From Candidatus Bathyarchaeota archaeon (GTDB taxonomy: Archaea; Thermoproteota; Bathyarchaeia; 40CM-2-53-6): a stretch of 64,000 bases of DNA. The notes below the pieces were generated by a model that was not told the origin of the DNA, searched no databases, and was given only the letters and a program-made list of their open reading frames with translations. Location of the stretch: NCBI GenBank assembly GCA_005884195.1, contig VBBP01000044.1:27151-91150 (forward strand). Direction: 5' to 3'. The translations under genes were made by a program, and so were the position numbers. Below are positions 13,382 through 56,615 of the stretch, piece by piece. Each line of letters begins with the position of its first letter. The first letter of the stretch is position 1.

Positions 13382-13664
13382 GAAAGGCTGCGCAATCTGC
13401 CAGGCAACGTGGGGCCACTACTGGGAAGAAATCGAGGGACAACGCATGTTCTTCTGTTGCGATATCTGCGCGGTCGAATTCAAGAACATGATCAATGAGG
13501 TGAAGAAAAAAACAGGATGGAAAACCGTAGATGAGATCAAGATGACGGGTAACTATCGAGGACGCGAATGCACAGCATTGCATGGAGGTAAAAAATACAA
13601 TTTCTCAATCCGGTTTGACTCGAAGGGCGGAATAGACGCTTTCAGTGAACGTCAAGATCTCTAG
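13368..13664 (+). CDS. Ta0938-like Cys-rich zinc-binding protein
   Basis: 98 aa. CAICQATWGHYWEEIEGQRMFFCCDICAVEFKNM (CxxC...CCDxC) resembles the Ta0938 family zinc-binding fold first described in Thermoplasma. Overlaps the upstream gene stop by 14 nt, which suggests coupling. Confidence 0.5.
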   Translation: MKVAEKGCAICQATWGHYWEEIEGQRMFFCCDICAVEFKNMINEVKKKTGWKTVDEIKMTGNYRGRECTALHGGKKYNFSIRFDSKGGIDAFSERQDL

Positions 13665-13876
13665 CCCTTCCAAATGCCTATTGCTAGGCCGACTAGGAAG
13701 GCTGCGGAGGTTATCGGTAGGATGGTTGCTAGACCGGAGGCCTGGCTAGCGATAGTGGGGAATTGCGAGGCGACTCTGTAGATTGTTGTCTTATTGTTGT
13801 CGCTCAGCGTGAGGTTGATGTAGCCTGTTGCGACCAGAAGGCCGACGAGGGATACTATGGCGAGTCCGAGCTTCAC
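13661..13876 (-). CDS. small membrane protein (two TM helices). The true start is probably upstream.
   Basis: GTG start at 13876. The in-frame upstream 38 codons (to the stop at 13991-13993) encode another hydrophobic helix (SGLVVSALIVLAIGFLVGVVL) but contain no ATG/GTG/TTG. Confidence 0.4.
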   Translation of the reverse strand: MKLGLAIVSLVGLLVATGYINLTLSDNNKTTIYRVASQFPTIASQASGLATILPITSAAFLVGLAIGIWKG

Positions 13877-14064
13877 AGTTTTCTTGAGAACTACCCCGAC
13901 TAGGAAGCCTATTGCCAGAACGATTAGCGCGGAGACGACTAGACCCGATCCGAGATCAAATGAGAATGCCAGGGATGTTCGATCATATACTCACGTTTGG
14001 GACTCTTAAGTTCATCCCATAACAAACACTCCGCGGTCATTCGGGATTCGTCTGCCGAGAAGTA

Positions 14065-14748
14065 CTACAGCTTGGCTAGCGAGTGGAAACCTAGTGTTCC
14101 GAGGTGCTTGTCGTAGAATGTGAAAATAATACTGATCCCATGCGCCCTACGCAGGGTTGCAATCGTGCAGTCCGTGAAGCTGAATTCCACATCGCTCCTC
14201 TGCTTGTAAGGGTTCCAAAACCGCTCCAACGTTTCCCCGTCGAGCTTCCGGAGAACGATAGTCTTGGAAGAGAAGATATCAGTTCCCAGTTGAACCGAGA
14301 GTTTGTGATTCCTTGTTCGGGCTCGACAATTAGTAACCGCCTCATCCAACACGTAATCTGAAGTGTACAGCTTGGTGTATTCCGTATTGTTCTCGGAGAT
14401 TCTCTCGAAGGGTTCGAGCACGGTCAGATGGTCGCTATCTCTTGTTGCAATAGGCCACAATTGGTCCCGTGTCGAGCAAGAGCTTCCACGACTACTTGCC
14501 ATACAAAATCTCGTCAACTTTCTCTCGAAGCCCTTTCTGCACCCTTTCCCCAGTCCTGAGCCTTGCGCCGACCGAGCGCAAGTGTCAAAAATCGGGTCCT
14601 TCGGATCAATGCCGGACTCCTCGTAGGTCCAGCGGAGAGCAGTCTCACGCAGTGCCTCCTTGATCGTGAGACCCTTCTTCTCCGCTACCCTGACCAAGGC
14701 TCGATACTCTTCAAGGCCCAGCTCGGTTCGGGCTACTTTCCGAGGCAT
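14065..14748 (-). CDS. RHH-antitoxin-like N-terminus fused to a PIN (VapC-like) nuclease domain in a single ORF
   Basis: N-terminal MPRKVARTELGLEEYRALVRVAEKKGLTIKEALRE... is a ribbon-helix-helix/CopG-like segment. C-terminal ...VLDEAVTNCRAR...SFTDCTIATLRRAHGISIIFTFYDKHL matches the PIN C-terminal motifs (D..IAAtA....lvT.D). The middle about 40 aa is low-complexity, so either a genuine fusion or a VapBC pair joined by loss of the antitoxin stop. Confidence 0.45.
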   Translation of the reverse strand: MPRKVARTELGLEEYRALVRVAEKKGLTIKEALRETALRWTYEESGIDPKDPIFDTCARSAQGSGLGKGCRKGFERKLTRFCMASSRGSSCSTRDQLWPIATRDSDHLTVLEPFERISENNTEYTKLYTSDYVLDEAVTNCRARTRNHKLSVQLGTDIFSSKTIVLRKLDGETLERFWNPYKQRSDVEFSFTDCTIATLRRAHGISIIFTFYDKHLGTLGFHSLAKL

Positions 14749-14830
14749 GGGTTTTCCACGCAGAATTACTTGTTGCAGATGTGTAAGCGTTTCGGCAGAC
14801 AGGGATTTAGCTCGCCTAAAGCGAATGCTA

Positions 14831-14983
14831 TTTTCCCAGACCGTTCATTATTTCCCGGTATCGTTCATATCTTCTCTTATCCGTATAGCTACTGTAGCTC
14901 AGTTCTAGGATTCTGTATCCTCTACTCCTTGGTAGGGTCCGAATCTCGGTTTCCGTGGAGGTGAGGGAACGAATAAGTAGTAC
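14831..14983 (-). pseudogene. degenerate copy of the 3' end of a DUF559-like endonuclease gene (no start codon)
   Basis: Minus-strand translation ...RGYRILELSYSSYTDKRRYERYREIMNGLGK* is homologous at nucleotide and protein level to the 3' end of the 15663-15844 ORF (RGYRILELSYSGYSDRKRDELYREMMSIIGN*). Stops upstream and no start codon. Confidence 0.35.
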
Positions 14984-46014: not shown

Positions 46015-46512
46015 TTGGCAACCCAGACCCAGAAGACCTCGATATACGCAGTCCGCACAACGAGCGGCCAAGAGAGAACTGTGGTCGATCTCATGGCCAG
46101 CAGAATCCAACCGAAGAAGCTTCCCATCGTAGCTATTCTCGCGCCAGAGGTCATCAAAGGATACATTTTCGTCGAGGCAATGGGACCACACTTCGTTGAC
46201 GAAGCGATAGCCGGGACGAGACACGCAAGAACCAGAACAAAGGGTGTCGTCTCGCTTGCGGCGATAGAACGATTCATAGTAACGAGACCCGTAATCGAGG
46301 AATTGAGCGTTGGAAATCTCGTCGAGGTTGTCGGTGGACCCTTTAGAGGTTTGAAAGCAAAGATCACACACGTCGACAAGGTCAAGCAGGAAGTGGTCAT
46401 CGAGCTTCTCGAAGAAGGATTCGCAACGCTTCCAATAACAGTGCACGCGGACTACGTCAAGCTCGTGAGCAGAGGAGAGGCAGAGGAAGCTGGCCGACAA
46501 GAAAACAGTTGA
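46015..46512 (+). CDS. spt5: transcription elongation factor Spt5 (NusG homologue)
   Basis: 165 aa. NGN domain (IYAVRTTSGQER...KGYIFVE) plus KOW motif (GNLVEVVGGPFRGLKAKI). Confidence 0.85.
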   Translation: MATQTQKTSIYAVRTTSGQERTVVDLMASRIQPKKLPIVAILAPEVIKGYIFVEAMGPHFVDEAIAGTRHARTRTKGVVSLAAIERFIVTRPVIEELSVGNLVEVVGGPFRGLKAKITHVDKVKQEVVIELLEEGFATLPITVHADYVKLVSRGEAEEAGRQENS

Positions 46513-46546
46513 CGCGATAATAGACGGCGGCAAAGCCACAGCAGGT

Positions 46547-46981
46547 GTGCCCCTTGGTCCTCAGCTAGGACCACTAGGAGTAAACATCCTGCAGATCGTC
46601 AACAGGATCAACGAGCTCACAAAAGCTTACGCGGGAATGAAGGTCCCCGTAAAGATTCTCGTTAACGTCGAAGACAAGAGCTTCGAAGTCGAGATCGGTA
46701 CGCCAACCACCTCTGCCTTGATAGTCAAGGAACTAGGTATCGAAAAAGGATCAGCAACACCCAAAGCCACCAAAGTCGGCAACCTGTCCCCTGAACAGAT
46801 TGTGAAAATAGCCCAGATGAAACGGACGGACAGCTATTCACGGACCCTAAAGTCGGCTGTGAAAGAAGTCGCAGGCGCATGCGTAAGCATGGGCGTCACA
46901 GTAGACGCCAAAGAACCGAAAGAGTTCATCAAGAACCTCGACGCAGGCCAGTATGACGCAGCGCTAAAGGAATTACAATAG
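46547..46981 (+). CDS. rpl11: 50S ribosomal protein L11 (annotated from the first canonical start; conserved N-terminus extends upstream to about 46499)
   Basis: PLGPQLGPLGVNI...TP..SALIVKELG... is L11. The in-frame upstream codons KKTVDAIIDGGKATAG (46499-46546) carry the conserved L11 N-terminal GGKATAG motif but no ATG/GTG/TTG occurs between the stop at 46466 and 46547. Confidence 0.85.
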   Translation: MPLGPQLGPLGVNILQIVNRINELTKAYAGMKVPVKILVNVEDKSFEVEIGTPTTSALIVKELGIEKGSATPKATKVGNLSPEQIVKIAQMKRTDSYSRTLKSAVKEVAGACVSMGVTVDAKEPKEFIKNLDAGQYDAALKELQ

Positions 46982-46993
46982 GAGAACGCTAAG

Positions 46994-47656
46994 ATGCCCC
47001 TGTCTAAGGATTCAATCACAAAGGCACTTGCTGACGTGAGGAGCAAGACGGAGAAGAGGAAATTCACTCAGGCAATCGAACTATCAGTCAAGCTTCGCGA
47101 GTTAGACCTGAAGAAGCCTGAGGCAAGAATCAACGAGAACCTCGAACTCCCAACAGCTGCAGACAAGGACTCGAAAGTGGCAGTGATAGCTGGCGGCGAC
47201 CTTGCTGTTAGAGCCAAGAACGCAGGAGCCGATATTATCATCGGGCGCGAGGATCTCGACAAGCTAGGTCGAGCGAAAAAAGAAGCTCGGAAGATCGCCC
47301 AGAACTACGACTTCTTCGTTGCAGAAGCTCCACTGATGCCGCAGGTCGGGAAGTCCCTTGGGCAGATTCTCGGACCCAGAGGCAAGATGCCGACACCTAT
47401 TCCTCCGACCGCGCCGATTGACGATATCATCAAGCGCCAGCGCCGCAATGTCCGGCTCAAGATGAAGGATCAGCCAGTGATTCAGGTCAAGGTAGGGACA
47501 GAAGACATGTCAGACGATGTTCTAGTACAGAACATCCAGACAGTCATCTCAAGATTAGAGGCCAAGCTGGAGAAAGGTCCTAAGAACATTAAAGGCGTCT
47601 CAATCAAAGCCTCAATGGGACCGCTAGTAAAGATACCGCTGGCAACGGCGACATAA
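46994..47656 (+). CDS. rpl1: 50S ribosomal protein L1
   Basis: 220 aa. KRKFTQAIELSVKL, FFVAEAPLMPQVGKSLGQILGPRGKMP motifs. Confidence 0.9.
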   Translation: MPLSKDSITKALADVRSKTEKRKFTQAIELSVKLRELDLKKPEARINENLELPTAADKDSKVAVIAGGDLAVRAKNAGADIIIGREDLDKLGRAKKEARKIAQNYDFFVAEAPLMPQVGKSLGQILGPRGKMPTPIPPTAPIDDIIKRQRRNVRLKMKDQPVIQVKVGTEDMSDDVLVQNIQTVISRLEAKLEKGPKNIKGVSIKASMGPLVKIPLATAT

Positions 47657-47660
47657 GACA

Positions 47661-48536
47661 ATGTCAACGACCCGCAAGGTAGCAGCATGGAAGAAGGAAG
47701 CAATAGCCCAACTGCAGGTTCTCTTGGAGAAGTATCCAGTCATAGCAGCCGCCGACCTGACCAAGGTCCGATCATCCCAGATCCACGAACTCCGTAAACG
47801 TCTACGGGACAAGGTCGCCATGGTGGTGACCAAGAACAATCTACTACGGAAGTCAGTCGAACTATCAGAATCCAGCCATGGGAGGGTCGGGGAGTTCGTC
47901 AAAGACCTCCAAGGCTCGAACATCTTACTGTTCACCGATGTCAATCCTTACTCTTTGATCATACTGCTCGAAAAGAGCAAGGTCAGAGTACCCGCGAAAG
48001 CTGGAGACATCGCAACAGGCGAGATCATGGTCCCGGCCGGAAACACCGGACTTCCCCCAGGCCCAGTTATTAGCGAATTTGGAGAAATCAAGGTCCAAAC
48101 GAGAATCGAGGGAGGAAGCATCTGGGTCGCAAGAGACTCGGTTGTCGCTAGAAGAGGAGACCTAATCACACCCAAAATGGCCTCCGTTCTTTCCAAACTT
48201 GGGCTCAAGCCAATGGAGGCCGGGCTCACGCTAGCTACCGCGTACGATAATGGAACCATACTCAGAGCCGACGATCTAGTCCTCGACATCAGCGCCTATC
48301 GAAAAGACGTTTTCCAAGCCATTAGCAACGCGTTCGGCCTCTCAATCGATGCGGGCTATGTGACTCCTGAGAACGCCCCGAGAATTCTAGGAAAGGGAAT
48401 GAGAGAAGCTCTAGCGATTGCCGTTGAAGCAGGTTTCCTTGAAAGTGGCACGATAGAGCCTGTCCTCAGACGCGCCGTCATGAACGCGAACGTGCTGAAA
48501 CAGAAGATTCCTACCGCAATACCCGGAAACCCTTAA
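47661..48536 (+). CDS. rpl10: 50S ribosomal protein L10 (P0)
   Basis: 291 aa. N-terminal KVAAWKKEAIAQLQVLLEKYPVIAAADLTKVRSSQIHELRKRLRD is the P0/L10 signature. Confidence 0.9.
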   Translation: MSTTRKVAAWKKEAIAQLQVLLEKYPVIAAADLTKVRSSQIHELRKRLRDKVAMVVTKNNLLRKSVELSESSHGRVGEFVKDLQGSNILLFTDVNPYSLIILLEKSKVRVPAKAGDIATGEIMVPAGNTGLPPGPVISEFGEIKVQTRIEGGSIWVARDSVVARRGDLITPKMASVLSKLGLKPMEAGLTLATAYDNGTILRADDLVLDISAYRKDVFQAISNAFGLSIDAGYVTPENAPRILGKGMREALAIAVEAGFLESGTIEPVLRRAVMNANVLKQKIPTAIPGNP

Positions 48537-48597
48537 GTGCAAGAATTGACGCTCGACTAAAATCCAAACAAATCCTGAGCAAAGAGGAAAAAGCCCA

Positions 48598-48900
48598 ATG
48601 AAGTATGTTTACGCCGCACTACTGCTGCACTCATCAGCGCAGCCTGTAACAGAAGAGAACGTGAAGAAAGTCGTAACCGCAGCAGGCAGCCAAGTCGAAG
48701 AGGCTCAAGTTAAGGCCTTGGTAGCGGCATTGTCTGAAGTCAACATTGACGAAGCCCTAAAGTCAGCCAGCGTAATGGCGGCACCCGTCGCAGCGCCCGC
48801 GGCACCAACAGAGTCGAAGAAGGAAGACAAGAAACCGGCTGAGGAAGAGAAGAAGAAGGAAGAAGAAGCCCTAGCCGGACTCGGGGCACTATTCGGTTAG
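48598..48900 (+). CDS. rpl12: 50S ribosomal protein L12 (P1 stalk protein)
   Basis: 100 aa. [11 protein letters not shown]..., Ala-rich hinge, and C-terminal [19 protein letters not shown] are typical of the archaeal P1/L12 acidic stalk protein. Confidence 0.85.
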
Positions 48901-49024
48901 AGGAAGAGCAAGGAGGTTCGCGGTATAGCTTCGCACAGTCTTCTCCTCGAATCGACAATCGTCTAGAACGCTAGGTCACTCAAAGCCTCTATATTTCCCG
49001 AGTAATCGTGGAGGGACACGATAG

Positions 49025-51817
49025 ATGCCAGAGATTAATCCGGAAGAATTTGCCCTCCCGTACTTCCGAGAAATCGGCTTCATTCGAAGAAAATGTCCAT
49101 CCTGCAAAAGTAACTACTGGGCGGCTCCCGATCAAACTACTTGCGGTGAAGTCCCGTGCGCACCGTATTCTTTCATCGGAAACCCCCCCACAAAACAGAG
49201 CTACAGCCTGGCAGAGATGCGCATTCAATTCATGGACTATTTCGCCGAACGAGGGCATACCCGAATCAAACCATATCCGATCGTGGCCCGCTGGCGTAAC
49301 GACGTATACCTCGTCGGCGCATCAATCTACGACTTCCAACCATACGTAACAGAAGGGAGCATGCCCCCTCCAGCAAACCCGCTGGTCATCAGCCAGCCCT
49401 GCATCCGCTTCACAGACATCGAATCGGTTGGCGCTGCAGGCCGACACATGTCCATCTTTGAAATGGGCGGAGCACACGCATTCAATTACCCGAACAAGGA
49501 AATCTACTGGAAAGACCAGACGGTAAGCTACCACCACAAATTGCTAACAGACGTGATGGGTGTCCCGTCTGAATCGATCACATACAAAGAGCACTTCTGG
49601 TCAGGAGGAGGAAATGCGGGCCCCGATTTGGAAGGAATCGTCTCTGGACTGGAAATATCGACACTTGTCTTCATGCAGTACAAGGTCCAAGGCGAAGAAC
49701 TCATGGCACTACCGATCAGGACAGTGGACACAGGCTATGGGATGGAAAGGTGGGCCTGGCTGTCCCAAGGCTCCCCAAGCGGATTCCACGCAGTATACGG
49801 CCCACTGCTCACCCATGTAATGGAACTAGCAAAGGTCGACCTCGACGAGAACACACTATCCTCCCTGACGAGGGCAGCCGGAATCTATGGAGCCGGCAGT
49901 CGAGCGGCAAGAGAAGCGTACATCGAAGCGACAGCATTGGAGACTGGTCGCGACAAAAACGCCTTCCGCTCCATCGTCCAGACCATAGAAGCCGCGTTCA
50001 CAATCACTGACCACACGAAGGCGATTTCCTTCCTACTAGCCGAAGGCGTCGTCCCTTCCAACGTAGGTGAAGGCTACCTAACCCGACTCATCATCCGCCG
50101 AGCAGCAAGGTTCGCCCGACAACTAGGAATCCTTCAGGAACTCCCCGGCATAATCGAGGGACAGATCAAAATGTGGGGCGGAGAATTCCACCTCCTCCGA
50201 GAGATGAGAGGAGAGATACTGGAAGGCCTCCAGATCGAGGTAGAGAAATACGAGGAGACGATCAGCAAGGGATCAGAAGCAGTCCTCAGACTCTCAAAGG
50301 AACTCTCGAGTCAAGGCGTTCGAAAGATCCCGACAGATCAGCTCGTTCTGCTCTACGATTCTCAAGGCCTCGCTCCCGAGATCGTGCAAGAAAGCGCGGA
50401 GAAGGTCGGAGTAGAGGTCGAGATTCCCGAGAACTTCTTGACGCTAGTCGCAGAACGACACTCGAAGCCGACCACCAGTCTCGAGGGACCCTCCTCCGAG
50501 CCTGAATGGGAAGCGCAGCTGAAGGATCTTCCAGCGACCCGTGCGTTATACTACGACGATGCCTACCAGACGAGTTTCCGGGCGAAGATAGTCGCGAGAG
50601 TCGCGGAAAACGCGGTCGTGTTGGACCAGACCTGTTTCTATCCTGAGGGAGGTGGACAGCTTAGCGACCACGGCGAGTTGCGATTTGCTGACCGGAAGGT
50701 GAAGGTCACGAACGTCCAGAAGGCCGGAAACACGATCGTTCATTTTCTTGACCAGCCCATCAGTCAGGAAAACGATCTGGTTGAAGGAGAGATCGACTGG
50801 CAGCGCCGCGTGAACCTGATGCGCCACCATACCGGCACTCACGCCCTGATCGGCGCTGCGCGCAGGGTCCTAGGCGAACACGTCTGGCAAGCTGGCGCGC
50901 AAAAAGAGGTGGAGAGCAGCAGGCTAGACATCACGCACTACCGAGAGATTACTCCGAAGGAAAGGGAACGGATTGAACGCCTAGTCAACCAAGTAATCCT
51001 ACGAGACCTACCAGTACAAGTGGCATGGATGGCTCGCGAGAAGGCAGAGGCAAAGTACGGATTCAGACTCTATCAGGGCGGCGCAGTCCCGGGATCCAAG
51101 ATCCGAGTGGTCAGAATCCAGGGCTGGGACGCTGAAGCTTGCGGAGGAACACACTGCAAGAGAACTGGAGAGCTAGGAGTGTTCAAGATCGAGAAAGCTG
51201 GCAAGCTCCAAGATGGCGTGGAGAGGATTATCTTCTCAGCAGGAGAGCCCGCGCTGAGACGGATTAATCAACAGAGCGAAGCACTTGCAAAAGCGAGCGA
51301 GCTCCTGAAGACAAGCCCTGAGAAGCTTCCAGAGTCTATCAAGGCGATCGTGGCTGAAAGAGACTCTCTAGAGAGAGAACTCGAAAAGGTTCATGCTAGG
51401 ACTACCGAGTCCCACGTGAAACAGCTCGCGAAGAAGGCAATCGCTCTCGGAACAGTCAGAGTCGTACTATCCAAGACGGCCAAGAGAAAAGGTATCGACA
51501 TTGTTGAGGTTGCAAATCGGCTCAAGGAATCAGACCCCAACATCATCGCGGTAATATTCGAAGTGTCAGAGCGGGTCCAAGTGGTTGCCGCAGCGGGCGA
51601 CGAAGCCGTCAAAGCAGGCGTTGACGCAGGCCGAATCGTCTCAGAGGCCTCCAAAATCCTAGGCGGAGGCGGAGGCGGTAGGCCATTCTTTGCTACCGGC
51701 GGCGGATCCTCTAAAGACAAAGCAGACGAAGCGCTGAAGATCGCAGAACAAACTATTACAAAACAGCTCAACACGGTGGTCCCAGCGGAGGGAATTAGCA
51801 ACGCCAGTCAAGCTTGA
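49025..51817 (+). CDS. alaS: alanine--tRNA ligase (archaeal type)
   Basis: 930 aa. The N-terminal catalytic core (FREIGFIRRKCPSC... with class-II motifs), the editing domain HxxxH...CGGTH (HHTGTHAL...CGGTHC), and the C-terminal DHHA1-like domain ending GGGGGRPFFATGGG. Confidence 0.95.
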   Translation: MPEINPEEFALPYFREIGFIRRKCPSCKSNYWAAPDQTTCGEVPCAPYSFIGNPPTKQSYSLAEMRIQFMDYFAERGHTRIKPYPIVARWRNDVYLVGASIYDFQPYVTEGSMPPPANPLVISQPCIRFTDIESVGAAGRHMSIFEMGGAHAFNYPNKEIYWKDQTVSYHHKLLTDVMGVPSESITYKEHFWSGGGNAGPDLEGIVSGLEISTLVFMQYKVQGEELMALPIRTVDTGYGMERWAWLSQGSPSGFHAVYGPLLTHVMELAKVDLDENTLSSLTRAAGIYGAGSRAAREAYIEATALETGRDKNAFRSIVQTIEAAFTITDHTKAISFLLAEGVVPSNVGEGYLTRLIIRRAARFARQLGILQELPGIIEGQIKMWGGEFHLLREMRGEILEGLQIEVEKYEETISKGSEAVLRLSKELSSQGVRKIPTDQLVLLYDSQGLAPEIVQESAEKVGVEVEIPENFLTLVAERHSKPTTSLEGPSSEPEWEAQLKDLPATRALYYDDAYQTSFRAKIVARVAENAVVLDQTCFYPEGGGQLSDHGELRFADRKVKVTNVQKAGNTIVHFLDQPISQENDLVEGEIDWQRRVNLMRHHTGTHALIGAARRVLGEHVWQAGAQKEVESSRLDITHYREITPKERERIERLVNQVILRDLPVQVAWMAREKAEAKYGFRLYQGGAVPGSKIRVVRIQGWDAEACGGTHCKRTGELGVFKIEKAGKLQDGVERIIFSAGEPALRRINQQSEALAKASELLKTSPEKLPESIKAIVAERDSLERELEKVHARTTESHVKQLAKKAIALGTVRVVLSKTAKRKGIDIVEVANRLKESDPNIIAVIFEVSERVQVVAAAGDEAVKAGVDAGRIVSEASKILGGGGGGRPFFATGGGSSKDKADEALKIAEQTITKQLNTVVPAEGISNASQA

Positions 51818-54725
51818 CTGGCACGCCCTCGAGAGAAAGTGGCAGAAGAAGTGGAACTGGCGCAAGATCTACGATACGGACCCGGACCCTCGCAAACCCA
51901 AGTACTATGCGACAGCCGCCTATCCTTACCCTAACTCTCCCCAGCACATAGGCCACGCAAGAACATACACCATCGCCGACGTCAACGCCCGATATCACCG
52001 GATGAAAGGCTACAACACCCTCTTCCCAATGGGCTTTCACTACACAGGCACCCCACTGTTCGCCATGAGCAAACGCCTGCGAGAAGGCGACCCCGAGATC
52101 CTCAAGACCTTCACAAAGGTCTACGGCATTCCGCCTGAAACGTTGGAGAAGCTGAAGGACCCGAAGTCGATGGCCTCCTACTTCCGCGAGGATATTAAGA
52201 AAGGAATGATCGAGATCGGGTTCTCGATCGACTGGCGACGAGAGTTCACGACTATCGACCCTCTGTACAATCGCTTCATCGAATGGCACTTCCAGACATT
52301 GAACCGGAAGGGGCTGATCACTAAGGGTACGCATCCTGTCGCCTGGTGCCCCAACGACAAGAGCCCAGTAGGGGTCGTAGACACTCAGGGTGATGTGGAG
52401 CCTGACATCGGAGAGTCCTACCTTGTCAAGTTCCAGAAAGAGGGCGTGTCCTATCCAACCTCGACTCTGAGGCCGGAGACGATCTTTGGAGTTACCAATC
52501 TCTGGGTCAATCCTGACGCCACCTACGTTAGAGCCAGGGTGGACGGCGAGCTTTGGATCGTCAGCAAGGAAGCGGTCGAGAAACTTCAGCACCAAAACCA
52601 CAAAGTCACAATGGAAGGTGAAATACCGGAAAGCGAGTTGCTGTGGAAGACCGTCCAGAACCCAGTCACCAACAGCGAAATTCCAATCCTACCCGGAAGC
52701 TTCGTGGAGCCCGACAACGGAACGGGCGTCGTCATGTCTGTTCCAGGACACGCTCCCTACGACTATCAAGCCCTAGCCGATCTCAAACAAAGGTATACGG
52801 ATTTAGCGGGGCCACAACAGGTCCTGCAGGACACCACGCCGATATCGATCATCCGGCTAGAAGGCTTCTCCGATCTCCCGGCCGCAGACTTGATCGAGAA
52901 ATTCAAAGTCAAAGACCAGAACGACCCACATCTAGAACACGCAACACAGGAACTGTACTCGAAAGAATTCCACGACGGCATAATGAAAGAAAACACAGGC
53001 AGTTACTCAGGAATGCCCGTCGCCAAAGCTAGAGAGGCCATCGTTCGAGAACTCACTAGTCAGGGAAAAATTGAGACCTTACTCGAACTGAGAAACGCGC
53101 CCGTAATCTGCCGCTGCGGAACCAAGTGCTTAGTCCACATCCTGGAGAACCAGTGGTTCATCAATTATGGGGATCCAGAATGGAAGAAGCTCGCACACAA
53201 ATGCCTAGATCAGATGACTATCCTGCCGGAAGATTTACGAGGAGAATTCAATTACACGATAGACTGGTTGAGAGAGAGGGCCTGCGCACGCGCTGTGGGT
53301 CTAGGGACGAAGCTTCCATGGGACCAGAACTGGATTATCGAAGCCCTTTCGGATTCGGTCATCTACATGGCCTACTACTTACTGTCCAAGTACTTCACCA
53401 AAGACTGGGTAGTCTTCAAGAAATTCGAAAGAGACACGTCGAGGCTACCGGACGCTTTCTTCAACTTCACGCTACTCGGAGACGGAACCATTGATACGGT
53501 TGCGGAGCAGACCAAGATTCCAAAGAGAATCCTGAACGCCATCCGAGCGGAGTTTCAATACTTCTACCCTGTCGACATGCGCCACTCTGCCCGAGACCTC
53601 GTCTCCAACCACCTATCCTTCTACATCTTCCACCACACAAGCTTATTTCCCGAGAAACAGTGGCCAAAAGGAATCGTGGCCAACGGGTTCGTGCTGATGG
53701 AAGGCGCGAAGATGTCAAAATCCCTCGAGAACATCATACCGCTACGCCAAGGAATTGCCAAGTTCGGAGCCGATCCCGTCCGGGTAGGAGTGATGGCGAC
53801 AGCTGAACTGGGTCAGGACACTGATTTCAGCGAAATGCTTGCCCTGTCGATTCATGAAAGACTATCCGCACTGATAGGACAGGCTAGAAAACTGGGCACG
53901 AAGAAAACAGCTGGGAAACCGAAACTCTCCACACTGGATCGGTGGATGATCAGCCGTCTGAGCAACGCGGTCCAGAGCGCCACAAATGCACTGGACCGGC
54001 TGAGAGTCAGGGAAGCCATCAACATCATAGTCTATCAACTCGACAACGACATCGCATGGTACAAGCGAAGACTGGGGCCCAAAAAACCTAGGTCCGACAA
54101 TCGCGACCGAGTCCTACGAAGAGTTCTGGAGACTAGGACAAGAATGATGGCTCCACTCGCACCCCATACGGCGGAAGAGATCTGGAGCCGCATTGGAAAC
54201 AAGGGATTCGTAGTTCAAGCCGATTGGCCTGAAGAAAGCGAGAATGAGAAAGACGCCGTAGCAGAACGGGCAGAGGCACTCATTCGACAGGCGTTAGAAG
54301 ATACCGGTGAGATCTTGAAAGCCACAGGCATCACCCCGAAGCGAATTGCCTACTACACTGCATCAGACTGGAAATGGGAAGTCTATCTCAAAGCATTGAA
54401 GGCGGCCAAGGAGAAGATGAGACAGGGCGATTTCATCAAGGACGTCATGGGAGATCCCCGGTTACGATCTCTAGGCAAGGCTGCTGCTGATTATGCTGCT
54501 AAGGCGATTCAACAGGCAAACCAGATGCCGGACGAGATGAAACAGTCACGTTTGCGAGACGGGGTTACAGCCGAGAACACTATCTTCGCTGACTCAGTCG
54601 ACTTCTATCAACGAGAATTCAAATGCACTGTCGATCTTTGGAATGAAGGAGATCCAAGCATAAACGACCCCAAGGGACGGGCTAGAATGTCTGAACCGTA
54701 CCGGCCAGCAATCTATCTAGAATAA
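51813..54725 (+). CDS. leuS: leucine--tRNA ligase (archaeal type). The start is unresolved: the conserved N-terminus lies upstream of the first ATG at 52002.
   Basis: The frame open from 51738 encodes ...LDWHALERKWQKKWNWRKIYDTDP...AAYPYPNSPQHIGHARTY (HIGH motif) before the first ATG (52002). There is no in-frame ATG/GTG/TTG between the stop at 51735 and 52002. The KMSKS motif (AKMSKSLEN) and the archaeal-type CP1 editing domain are present. 51813 is a nominal start where the conserved region begins. Confidence 0.9.
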   Translation, partial: LDWHALERKWQKKWNWRKIYDTDPDPRKPKYYATAAYPYPNSPQHIGHARTYTIADVNARYHRMKGYNTLFPMGFHYTGTPLFAMSKRLREGDPEILKTFTKVYGIPPETLEKLKDPKSMASYFREDIKKGMIEIGFSIDWRREFTTIDPLYNRFIEWHFQTLNRKGLITKGTHPVAWCPNDKSPVGVVDTQGDVEPDIGESYLVKFQKEGVSYPTSTLRPETIFGVTNLWVNPDATYVRARVDGELWIVSKEAVEKLQHQNHKVTMEGEIPESELLWKTVQNPVTNSEIPILPGSFVEPDNGTGVVMSVPGHAPYDYQALADLKQRYTDLAGPQQVLQDTTPISIIRLEGFSDLPAADLIEKFKVKDQNDPHLEHATQELYSKEFHDGIMKENTGSYSGMPVAKAREAIVRELTSQGKIETLLELRNAPVICRCGTKCLVHILENQWFINYGDPEWKKLAHKCLDQMTILPEDLRGEFNYTIDWLRERACARAVGLGTKLPWDQNWIIEALSDSVIYMAYYLLSKYFTKDWVVFKKFERDTSRLPDAFFNFTLLGDGTIDTVAEQTKIPKRILNAIRAEFQYFYPVDMRHSARDLVSNHLSFYIFHHTSLFPEKQWPKGIVANGFVLMEGAKMSKSLENIIPLRQGIAKFGADPVRVGVMATAELGQDTDFSEMLALSIHERLSALIGQARKLGTKKTAGKPKLSTLDRWMISRLSNAVQSATNALDRLRVREAINIIVYQLDNDIAWYKRRLGPKKPRSDNRDRVLRRVLETRTRMMAPLAPHTAEEIWSRIGNKGFVVQADWPEESENEKDAVAERAEALIRQALEDTGEILKATGITPKRIAYYTASDWKWEVYLKALKAAKEKMRQGDFIKDVMGDPRLRSLGKAAADYAAKAIQQANQMPDEMKQSRLRDGVTAENTIFADSVDFYQREFKCTVDLWNEGDPSINDPKGRARMSEPYRPAIYLE

Positions 54726-55174: not shown

Positions 55175-55378
55175 TCAAAATCGACGCTTGAACTTGCGAA
55201 TTGGGTGTGATTTCTCGATGGAAAACCAGTCTCCTCCGCAACCATTGGGGCAGGCCTTCTCGTCAAGCTGCAGCATTTCTCCCTCAGAATAGTTGAGCTG
55301 TCTTCTCCTCTCCTCGAACGTCCGCTCAAACATAACCGCGCATTTCACGCAACGAAGCTCCAAGACCACTCGAACCAC
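55175..55378 (-). CDS. small zinc-finger protein
   Basis: 67 aa. CVKC...CPNGC. Confidence 0.35.
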   Translation of the reverse strand: MVRVVLELRCVKCAVMFERTFEERRRQLNYSEGEMLQLDEKACPNGCGGDWFSIEKSHPIRKFKRRF

Positions 55379-55457
55379 CGCGGGGACCTTTCTTCTCCAG
55401 AGCCAAAGTCAAGGGTAATTAAACCAGAAAGCCTCCCAACAGTAAAGCGACGACCCA

Positions 55458-56615
55458 TTGCTTCTAGAACTTCCCGAGAGACGGCTGCAACTTGATCCAG
55501 AACTGGATCACCGCCTCCGTGACGTCTACGGCCAACGAATCGACGGCGTTCTATCTGCAATGCAGGCGATGCCTTCGCGATACTATTTCAGGATAAACAC
55601 GCTGGAAGTTGAACGAGAAATCGTCATCCAATCGATGATTGCCGATGGTCTGCGCGCCGAGCCTCACAAGCAGCTCGAAGATGCCGGGTTCCTCCATCCT
55701 CGCCCCTCCAGAATAGAAACTGATTGCCACACTGTGGAAGCGGACAGGGTCGCCGCAGAAGCCGTTCAACTAGGAGCGCATCTCTACGCGCCGGGCGTAA
55801 AGCGATGCCACGGGTTGAGGCCCGGCATGAAAGTAACGGTGGTCGATGAGACCGGAACGCCAGTCGGCTCCGGCGTTTCCCACCAGAGCGAGACGAGCGT
55901 CTTGACCTACCGACAGGGTGTAGCGGTGGAAATCAAGATTAGCAGAACGGGTTTGCCGAGCATTATGGAAACCTCGTGGTACGCCAATGGACAGATCCAC
56001 CTCCAATCGCTGCCAGCAATTCTTACAAGCCATATTTTAGATCCGAAACCGGGAGAGACCATTGTCGACCTCAACTGCGCACCTGGCGGCAAGACAAGTC
56101 ACATCAGCCAGTTAACCCGAAATCAGGCTCGAATAATCGGCTTCGACCGCAACAAACACAAGATCCTGAAAGCAGAGGAACTCATGCACAGAATGGGCTG
56201 CGCTAACTACCAGTTGATATCGCACGACTCCAGATATATCCACCTTGATTACAACATCAAAGCCGACAGAGTTCTAGTGGACCCTCCTTGCACCGCTCTC
56301 GGAGTAATCCCGAAGCTTGCAATCGAGACAACCATGCGGAATGTCGTGAACTCAGCGGAATATCAGAGGCAGTTTCTAACTGCCGCTTCAGGTATAACCA
56401 AGAGAGGCGGAACAGTGGTGTACAGTGTCTGCACGATTAGCAAGGAAGAGTGCGAAGACATTGTCAGTTTTGCAGAGAACGAATTGGGGCTGGAGCTAGA
56501 AGAACAAACTCCGTTCCTAGCTGAAGCCGGGTTTGATCCAGATCATCTCACGCAGAGGTTCAATCCCGACATTCATGAGACAGGCTATTTCATAGCCCGG
56601 TTCATCAAGAACTGA
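55458..56615 (+). CDS. NOL1/NOP2/Sun-family RNA (cytosine-C5)-methyltransferase with N-terminal PUA-like domain
   Basis: 385 aa. SAM-binding DLNCAPGGKTSHISQL, the catalytic RVLVDPPCTALGV (PC motif) and VYSVCTISKEE (TC motif). Confidence 0.8.
   Translation: MLLELPERRLQLDPELDHRLRDVYGQRIDGVLSAMQAMPSRYYFRINTLEVEREIVIQSMIADGLRAEPHKQLEDAGFLHPRPSRIETDCHTVEADRVAAEAVQLGAHLYAPGVKRCHGLRPGMKVTVVDETGTPVGSGVSHQSETSVLTYRQGVAVEIKISRTGLPSIMETSWYANGQIHLQSLPAILTSHILDPKPGETIVDLNCAPGGKTSHISQLTRNQARIIGFDRNKHKILKAEELMHRMGCANYQLISHDSRYIHLDYNIKADRVLVDPPCTALGVIPKLAIETTMRNVVNSAEYQRQFLTAASGITKRGGTVVYSVCTISKEECEDIVSFAENELGLELEEQTPFLAEAGFDPDHLTQRFNPDIHETGYFIARFIKN

Follow-up and report, generated by a model that had tools for sequence, protein, structure and literature searches.

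Probable CTG and ACG start codons for ribosomal protein L11, leucyl-tRNA synthetase and a small membrane protein in a soil lineage of Bathyarchaeia

In a stretch of DNA of 64,000 nucleotides (nt) from a soil member of Bathyarchaeia (the window; Candidatus Bathyarchaeota archaeon, assembly GCA_005884195.1, contig VBBP01000044.1, positions 27,151 to 91,150 of the forward strand), the genes for ribosomal protein L11 (rpl11), leucyl-tRNA synthetase (LeuRS, leuS) and a small membrane protein have no ATG, GTG or TTG in frame 5' of the stretches that encode their N-terminal regions. A preliminary description of the window, made from its sequence alone, had drawn attention to this lack for L11 and LeuRS and had named the membrane protein as a likely third case, and for all three genes we found the same. 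Matches to the alanyl-tRNA synthetase (AlaRS) of the window were found at 38 loci in species-representative genomes, mostly metagenome-assembled genomes of soil Candidatus Bathyarchaeota, with the closer clade at 62-93% identity. The relative loci and contigs that were compared with the window carry L-numbers, and the junctions of all relatives were aligned codon by codon. For a survey of start codons, 25 start columns between 39.5 and 62.3 kb were curated and the codon was read in each relative; in all 25 genes the N-terminal region aligns to the relatives in a single frame, and each start column can be read without a frame change. For the window itself a set of 26 starts was curated, including the CTG and ACG cases. 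Shine-Dalgarno duplex energies were calculated with a 16S 3' tail that was assumed from general knowledge and may not be that of the host, and this applies to all energies and Shine-Dalgarno matches given below.

The gene for Spt5 (NGN/KOW), as given by the list of open reading frames (ORFs), occupies 46015..46512 on the forward strand, from a TTG start to a TGA stop at 46510-46512, and its last 23 nt overlap the L11 gene. The syntenic gene of L116 has the Pfam domains Spt5-NGN and KOW, and the spt5 start column holds TTG, GTG or ATG in the relatives. In the L11 frame the stop codon TGA at 46466-46468 is followed only by non-start codons until a GTG at 46547-46549, which is the start in JGI and ENA gene calls (144 amino acids, aa) and which drops 19 conserved residues. 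KKTV is encoded at 46499-46510 and the conserved residues DAIIDGGKATAG at 46511-46546, and from 46490 the window reads CTG GCC GAC AAG AAA ACA GTT GAC. According to the column alignment across relatives, the CTG at 46490-46492 on the forward strand is most likely the start codon of L11. The same column holds ATG in L011, L019 and L020, GTG in L035 and CTG in 13 relatives, with CTG found down to approximately 70% AlaRS identity. Proteins from other metagenomes that are at least 90% identical to L11 have the N-termini VADKKTV or VTDKKTV, implying GTG. Directly 5' of the CTG, inside spt5, lies a purine-rich, GAGG-rich Shine-Dalgarno-like tract, GAGGAGAGGCAGAGGAAG (46472..46489, forward strand), with a duplex energy of -7.2 kcal/mol compared to a background mean of -4.6.

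Read from this CTG, the L11 coding sequence would span 46490..46981 on the forward strand and encode 163 aa with the predicted N-terminal peptide (M)ADKKTVDAIIDGGK. This extent agrees with the structure alignment, in which residue 4 aligns with residue 3 of Methanocaldococcus jannaschii L11 (5COL, E = 2e-54) and of the archaeal L11P chain 4V6U_BH; the similarity to the solved L11 structure covers the full length, N-terminal domain included, and homologues carry Pfam PF03946 and PF00298. In the stretch 46511-46546 the variable sites at codon positions 1, 2 and 3 number 3, 0 and 11 (16 sequences). The CTG lies 20 nt upstream of the spt5 stop, and relatives with an ATG or GTG start retain the 23-nt overlap. 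The spt5 codon that overlaps the start column is GCT, ACT, TCT, GAT or AGT, with the T retained; across the CTG-bearing relatives it changes its first base and keeps the C and T.

The second junction is that of alaS and leuS. The alaS gene (AlaRS, 930 aa) is encoded at 49025..51817 on the forward strand after an intergenic gap of approximately 125 nt; its stop is the TGA at 51815-51817, and its last 17 nt overlap leuS. The positions of both the spt5 and the alaS stop agree with the preliminary description. In the LeuRS frame a TGA at 51735-51737 is followed by no canonical start until an ATG at 52002-52004, and the interval encodes the HIGH motif together with about 60 conserved residues. This ATG, the start in GenBank (TMI22030.1, 907 aa) and JGI, gives a product without the HIGH motif, and no Shine-Dalgarno match was found upstream of it (-1.5 kcal/mol). 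From 51801 the window reads ACG CCA GTC AAG CTT GAC TGG, and the column alignment makes the ACG at 51801-51803 (forward strand) the most likely start codon of LeuRS. ACG occupies this column in the window and in L001, L003, L004, L005, L006, L009, L012, L013, L031 and L116, whereas ATG is found in L002, which is the sister of the window in the AlaRS tree, and in L008, GTG in L115 and ATA in L022. The JGI contigs L115 and L116 have identical leuS flanks, reading ...GCGGAGGGAATCAGCA (...GGAGGGAATCAGCA), then GTG in L115 or ACG in L116, then CCGGCCAAGCTTGAC. In L006 the open frame 5' of the conserved LeuRS domain is only 8 codons long, and the ACG is the sole near-cognate codon in the right place. 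In the clade that extends to L005 (81% AlaRS identity) the ACG is the ancestral state, although its replacement by ATG would be a silent change in alaS (AAC to AAT).

Inside alaS, 8 nt upstream of the ACG, lies the Shine-Dalgarno-like site GGAGGG (51787..51792, forward strand). At -11.3 kcal/mol it is the strongest of the 26 start regions, equalled by approximately 1-3% of random 25-mers of the window, and it is kept in all clade members, whereas the adjoining positions 5' of it vary. From the ACG, leuS would span 51801..54725 on the forward strand and encode 974 aa, as many as close homologues that begin at a canonical codon (MPAKLDW..., VPAKLDW...). In the alignment with Pyrococcus horikoshii LeuRS (1WZ2, 1WKB; E about 1e-51) its residue 4 falls on residue 3, and for L11 and LeuRS alike the proposed N-terminus agrees with the solved structures to within one residue. 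The similarity to solved LeuRS is full-length with the HIGH motif included, as expected of a class Ia LeuRS. A homologue search with the LeuRS N-terminus gave mostly fragments and added little. In the stretch 51819-52001 the variable sites at the three codon positions number 18, 16 and 51 (16 sequences). The ACG lies 14 nt upstream of the alaS stop. In a more distant clade leuS starts at a TTG one codon further on, just past a separate alaS stop, and the layout in these outgroups is stop, 2-5 nt, TTG. The ancestral alaS stop (TAG, context TTAGCA, window 51796-51798) is out of frame in the clade of the window, where alaS is longer by 7 codons and overlaps leuS by 17 nt.

The small membrane protein is encoded on the minus strand in an ORF at 13661-13990. 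As the preliminary description had it, the first canonical start, GTG 13876, lies downstream of a transmembrane helix; it is located 38 codons into the open frame. We infer a start at CTG 13972-13970, which would give a protein of 103 aa (13661..13972, minus strand). In 63 metagenome loci this column holds CTG 44 times, TTG 5 times and ATG 3 times; of the remaining loci, 8 have CTC, CTT, CTA or TTA followed directly by GTG, and 3 have CAA. The last three (L096, L099 and L102) have no CTG or canonical codon nearby, their sole near-cognate codon being an ACG 10 codons upstream, and they could be pseudogenes or a further case of an ACG start. From the CTG column to GTG 13876 the variable sites at the three codon positions number 17, 9 and 32 (45 distinct sequences). 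The gene lies 92 nt from its neighbour, and its CTG has a weak match to the anti-Shine-Dalgarno sequence. In most of the metagenome relatives the motif CTTAAGAG (window 14003-14010, minus strand, 30 nt upstream of CTG 13972) is found 5' of the gene with slight variations. Should it act as a TATA-like promoter element, the transcripts would have a leader of just a few nt, and on such an almost leaderless mRNA CTG would be an unusual start.

In all three genes, thus, the stretches without a canonical start vary mainly at third codon positions, which shows that they are coding, and the alignment of the columns with relatives that have canonical starts fixes the positions of the starts. This bears on the codons that the preliminary description had proposed. 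Its suggestion that initiation is non-canonical agrees with our reading, but the codons it named (GTC, GTT, ATA or CTT near the junctions) are not conserved as such and lie downstream of N-terminal residues that are common to relatives with canonical starts. The GTT at 46508 is the conserved Val of KKTV, the ATA-ATA at 46517-46522 is replaced by CTA, CTG, GTC and ATC in relatives, and the GTC at 51807 is GCC in relatives. A sequence motif thought to be common to the two junctions was not upheld either, as CAGTTGAC at L11 merely encodes T-V-D plus the spt5 stop, and the CCAGTC at leuS is CCGGCC or CCAGCC in relatives.

The same kind of codon was found at the start of other genes of the lineage. 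Over the 25 start columns the relatives have ATG 115 times, TTG 77, GTG 36, CTG 22, ACG 12 and ATA once, and a shifted L10 column adds CTG three times and ACG once. With a near-cognate codon in the column (almost always CTG, ACG or ATA), 38 of 40 gene-genome pairs lack a canonical start from -10 to +5 codons; with any other codon, 20 of 22 pairs have one there (Fisher p = 5e-12; p = 4e-4 when collapsed by hand to 14 and 14 roughly independent events). The alaS gene, which has ATG, TTG or GTG in the other relatives, has ACG in L004 (...TGGAGGGATACGATAG ACG CCAGAG...), immediately behind an in-frame TAG that is followed by ATG or TTG in neighbours; the context of this ACG (GGAGGG, then 8 nt) is identical to that of the ATG and TTG relatives. 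The L10 column has CTG in L034 and L007 and ACG in L011, and L038 also has CTG or ACG at this gene. Ribosomal protein LX starts at CTG in five relatives (L009, L013, L010, L022 and L005 are the loci listed with CTG or ACG), secE at CTG in L035, and tenA in L053 and L054 at a CTG that immediately follows a stop codon, and CTG or ACG was also found at the start of the homologues of the genes at window 56627 (L014) and window 60917 (L008). All these genes have a canonical start in the window, and the relatives with CTG or ACG have no alternative nearby.

The non-canonical start codons, including CTG 46490, ACG 51801 and CTG 13972, are all one mismatch away from AUG. Single transitions in GTG or TTG would give GCG, GTA, TCG and TTA, which have two mismatches, and none of these was ever the one available candidate for a start: where GCG or TTA stood in a start column, a canonical start or a CTG was present a few codons away at most. 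From these alignments it appears that in related soil Bathyarchaeia ATG, GTG, TTG, CTG and ACG interchange at the start of many genes. The 26 curated starts of the window consist of 13 ATG, 9 TTG, 1 GTG, 2 CTG and 1 ACG, so that CTG and ACG make up 3 of 26. Start usage is unusually rich in TTG (35% of the genes), with a single GTG, and CTG is one transition away from TTG.

We consider it likely that initiation at the three genes is near-cognate and directed by Shine-Dalgarno-like sites, at CTG for L11 and the membrane protein and at ACG for LeuRS. The small ribosomal subunit would be positioned by the upstream site, GGAGGG before the ACG and the GAGG-rich tract before the CTG of L11, and most likely the ordinary initiator Met-tRNA would then read a codon that is one base from AUG. 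Translation of spt5 and alaS may help L11 and LeuRS by opening the mRNA, and would not be needed for the starts. The restriction to codons with one mismatch points to decoding by the normal initiator tRNA, and as CTG and ACG persist across the clade, they cannot be strongly deleterious there. The alignments show where the start columns lie, which codons the relatives have there and that the stretches behind them are coding; that the initiator tRNA decodes both codons as methionine, and with what efficiency, we infer.

Several points weigh against this interpretation. In Escherichia coli, CUG initiates at 1-2% of the level of AUG and ACG at 0.1-1% (10.1101/063800), and a ribosomal protein and two aminoacyl-tRNA synthetases that start on CUG or ACG would need a much better efficiency or some compensation. 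Reviews name only AUG, GUG and UUG as archaeal start codons (PMC4705826, PMC7531240). The ACG of leuS has become ATG (L002) or GTG (L115) in close relatives, which suggests that it is tolerated rather than optimal, and the exact leuS start appears ambiguous in L022, where an in-frame CTG precedes the ATA by 8 codons, and in L005, where a CTG adjoins the ACG on its 5' side. The gene-genome pairs of the survey are phylogenetically non-independent. Finally, the evidence for the CTG and ACG starts is comparative and comes from DNA rather than from proteins or ribosomes.

The preliminary description gave two explanations, termination-reinitiation at non-canonical codons and an assembly artefact. 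According to the former, ribosomes that end spt5 or alaS at the TGA back up and restart at a nearby non-canonical codon, so that the downstream genes depend on upstream translation. The L11 and LeuRS starts do both lie inside the upstream gene, shortly before its stop, as in known pairs of co-directional genes that overlap in this way, and such coupling is reported for archaea (PMC6728339; see also PMC10666635). However, the overlaps of 23 and 17 nt differ from those of coupled pairs, which are 4, 1 or 8 nt; overlaps of more than 8 nt are rare, and -23 and -17 nt fall outside the range of -8 to +10 nt that is deemed predictive of coupling (PMC10666635). In Haloferax volcanii and E. coli coupling was approximately 40-60% at a stop-to-start distance of 13-14 nt and near zero at 22-23 nt, with only downstream distances tested (PMC10666635). 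The 23-nt overlap that is kept by the ATG and GTG relatives shows that the overlap is independent of the identity of the start codon, the leuS ACG has a strong, conserved internal Shine-Dalgarno site, and CTG and ACG also occur without a nearby upstream stop, at the membrane protein gene and at alaS. Reinitiation is therefore no requirement, and we regard it as an unlikely explanation of the starts, although it may contribute at L11 and LeuRS. An artefact, in which a base error or a homopolymer indel would have destroyed the true starts, could draw on three one-base indels in one gene between the window and the near-identical contig L040 and on a PIN-domain gene that looks frameshifted. The CTG and ACG codons with the same flanks are, however, shared by over 20 assemblies that were made independently, from different projects and samples, and over 5.85 kb the JGI soil-metagenome contig L001 aligns to the window gap-free at 99.95% identity and with an identical junction. 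GTG at 46508-46510 or 51807-51809, which the preliminary description had put forward as the sign of a simple base error, was seen in no relative, and a one-base homopolymer deletion (TTGGAC to TTGAC) was dismissed, the sequence being common to all relatives. Nor were the several frameshifted genes that had been described recovered: in Pfam scans of 20 adjacent or overlapping ORFs no gene was split between frames, the sole frameshift-like case being the PIN-domain toxin, and the 25 surveyed genes, as said, each keep a single frame. On these comparisons assembly error can be taken as excluded.

C-to-U editing of the mRNA would turn ACG into AUG and CUG into UUG and so make the translated starts canonical, and the orphan start columns are indeed almost all CTG or ACG, one C-to-U change from a canonical codon; the single genome with ATA (L022) has the alternative in-frame CTG. 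No report of mRNA C-to-U editing in archaea was found in the literature searched. To our knowledge, C-to-U editing in archaea is limited to tRNA. CUG and ACG are moreover one-mismatch neighbours of AUG, and a single T-to-C transition turns UUG into CUG and AUG into ACG, so that editing is not needed for the pattern. The parallel is with plant organelles, the only place where such editing of starts is so far known, in which a genomic ACG stands at the start of a conserved gene that has ATG in relatives (PMC12548569); unlike there, no editing machinery is known for archaea, and CTG would give UUG rather than AUG. Altogether editing seems quite improbable. We give hardly any credence to recoding, in which a +1 frameshift at the TGA would fuse Spt5 to L11 and AlaRS to LeuRS in the manner of prfB, or translation would start at an out-of-frame TTG in TTGAC and then slip. 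Both junctions do read N-TTGAC (46509-46513 and 51814-51818), with a TTG that overlaps the TGA like a normal TTGA overlap one base out of frame, and GGAGGG lies upstream within alaS. In prfB, the slippery CUU UGA C has a Shine-Dalgarno sequence 3 nt upstream. The junctions have no such slippery codon, the frames being GCT TGA C and AGT TGA C, and 21-22 nt separate the upstream Shine-Dalgarno-like site from the final sense codon ahead of the TGA. The relatives have independent ATG or GTG codons at the CTG and ACG columns, and outgroup leuS starts after a separate alaS stop. The out-of-frame TTG was rejected as a start, as its frame at L11 closes after three codons (TTG ACG CGA TAA), the TTG is missing from outgroups, and canonical starts of relatives fall into the CTG and ACG columns; we judge TTGAC to be a coincidence of the TGA stop with a preceding T. 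It is equally hard to believe that the first canonical codons (GTG 46547, ATG 52002 and GTG 13876) are the true starts and the proteins are N-terminally shortened. These codons are used in gene calls of JGI and ENA, and GenBank has them for LeuRS and the membrane protein, but the skipped stretches evolve as coding sequence and hold the L11 segment DGGKATAG(P/V)PLGP and, in LeuRS, the class I HIGH motif, both of which are part of solved structures, and ATG 52002 lacks a Shine-Dalgarno match.

Near-cognate initiation, the reading that we prefer, has counterparts in other systems, and in eukaryotes CUG and ACG are among the preferred non-canonical codons, the same as here. The eukaryotic process (CUG, GUG, ACG; PMC5666671, PMC4705826) resembles the one proposed in that archaea have homologues of eIF1, eIF1A and eIF2. 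Unlike in eukaryotes there would be no scanning, as a Shine-Dalgarno match sets the site, and the codons would be the sole starts of essential proteins rather than those of isoforms or upstream ORFs. The rare bacterial starts of the CUG/AUU class are likewise Shine-Dalgarno-led and one base from AUG, and in E. coli the near-cognate product carries an N-terminal Met (10.1101/063800). In contrast to these, the codons described here stand on a ribosomal protein and aminoacyl-tRNA synthetases, are conserved in a clade and make up about 10% of the curated starts, and archaeal initiation depends on aIF1, aIF1A and aIF2 where bacteria have IF3. In ribosome profiling of H. volcanii approximately 30% of the putative alternative initiation sites were at near-cognate codons (PMC7261190); the study discounted these as potential false positives, and none was the main start of a conserved gene, whereas here comparative genomics marks CTG and ACG as the only possible starts. 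In the literature searched on CTG and ACG starts in archaea and Bathyarchaeota we found no description of them, natural ACG starts included. What would be new is that a whole lineage conserves CUG, and above all ACG, as the only start codons of essential archaeal genes; the kind of phenomenon is known.

The L11 start at CTG is already on record in GenBank, where an entry with locus tags E6H31_ (apparently the source contig) has L11 called from CTG (TMI22025.1, 163 aa, MADKKTV...), and this independent call speaks for the CTG. NCBI table 11 permits CTG as a start and is not known to permit ACG. Standard gene finders accept only ATG, GTG and TTG and so truncate these proteins. In GenBank LeuRS is shortened as described above, and the membrane protein is called at 71 aa instead of 103 (TMI21973.1). 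The 90% cluster of L11 has 262 members and includes full-length calls of 163 aa; many members, the representative included, are truncated to 114-144 aa. The JGI and ENA calls in the cluster are mostly of this shorter length, and those of the JGI contigs L001 and L116 are 127-144 aa. Truncated calls distort protein families, completeness estimates and structure predictions for the clade. If our interpretation is true, a soil archaeal lineage accepts CUG and ACG beside AUG, GUG and UUG for the core genes L11, L10, LX, AlaRS and LeuRS. With ACG naturally conserved on essential genes, the initiation machinery (aIF1, aIF2, initiator tRNA) would then have to be more permissive or re-tuned, and the lineage would be a natural system in which to study how start-codon stringency is set in initiation of the archaeal and eukaryotic type. 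We regard the biological interest as moderate and the consequences for annotation as direct.

Some other features of the window were noted. A tRNA scan found none in the window or in 29 loci, and an Rfam scan gave no match in the window. The ORF at 55211-55495 (forward strand), which has 94 codons and no ATG, GTG or TTG, was considered as a fourth case and rejected, as it contains stops in relatives. On the opposite strand, 55175-55378 (minus) encodes a zinc-ribbon-like protein of 67 aa (CxxC...CxxxC). At 14065-14844 (minus strand) a VapB/VapC-like pair forms one fused ORF, with the PIN N-terminus (LLLDTGPIVAYCNKR*) in another frame near 14440, so that the toxin gene looks frameshifted. The contig L040, which is 99.7% identical to the window, differs from it by the three one-base indels mentioned above (14737, 14586 and 14580), all of which lie inside the VapC-like gene.

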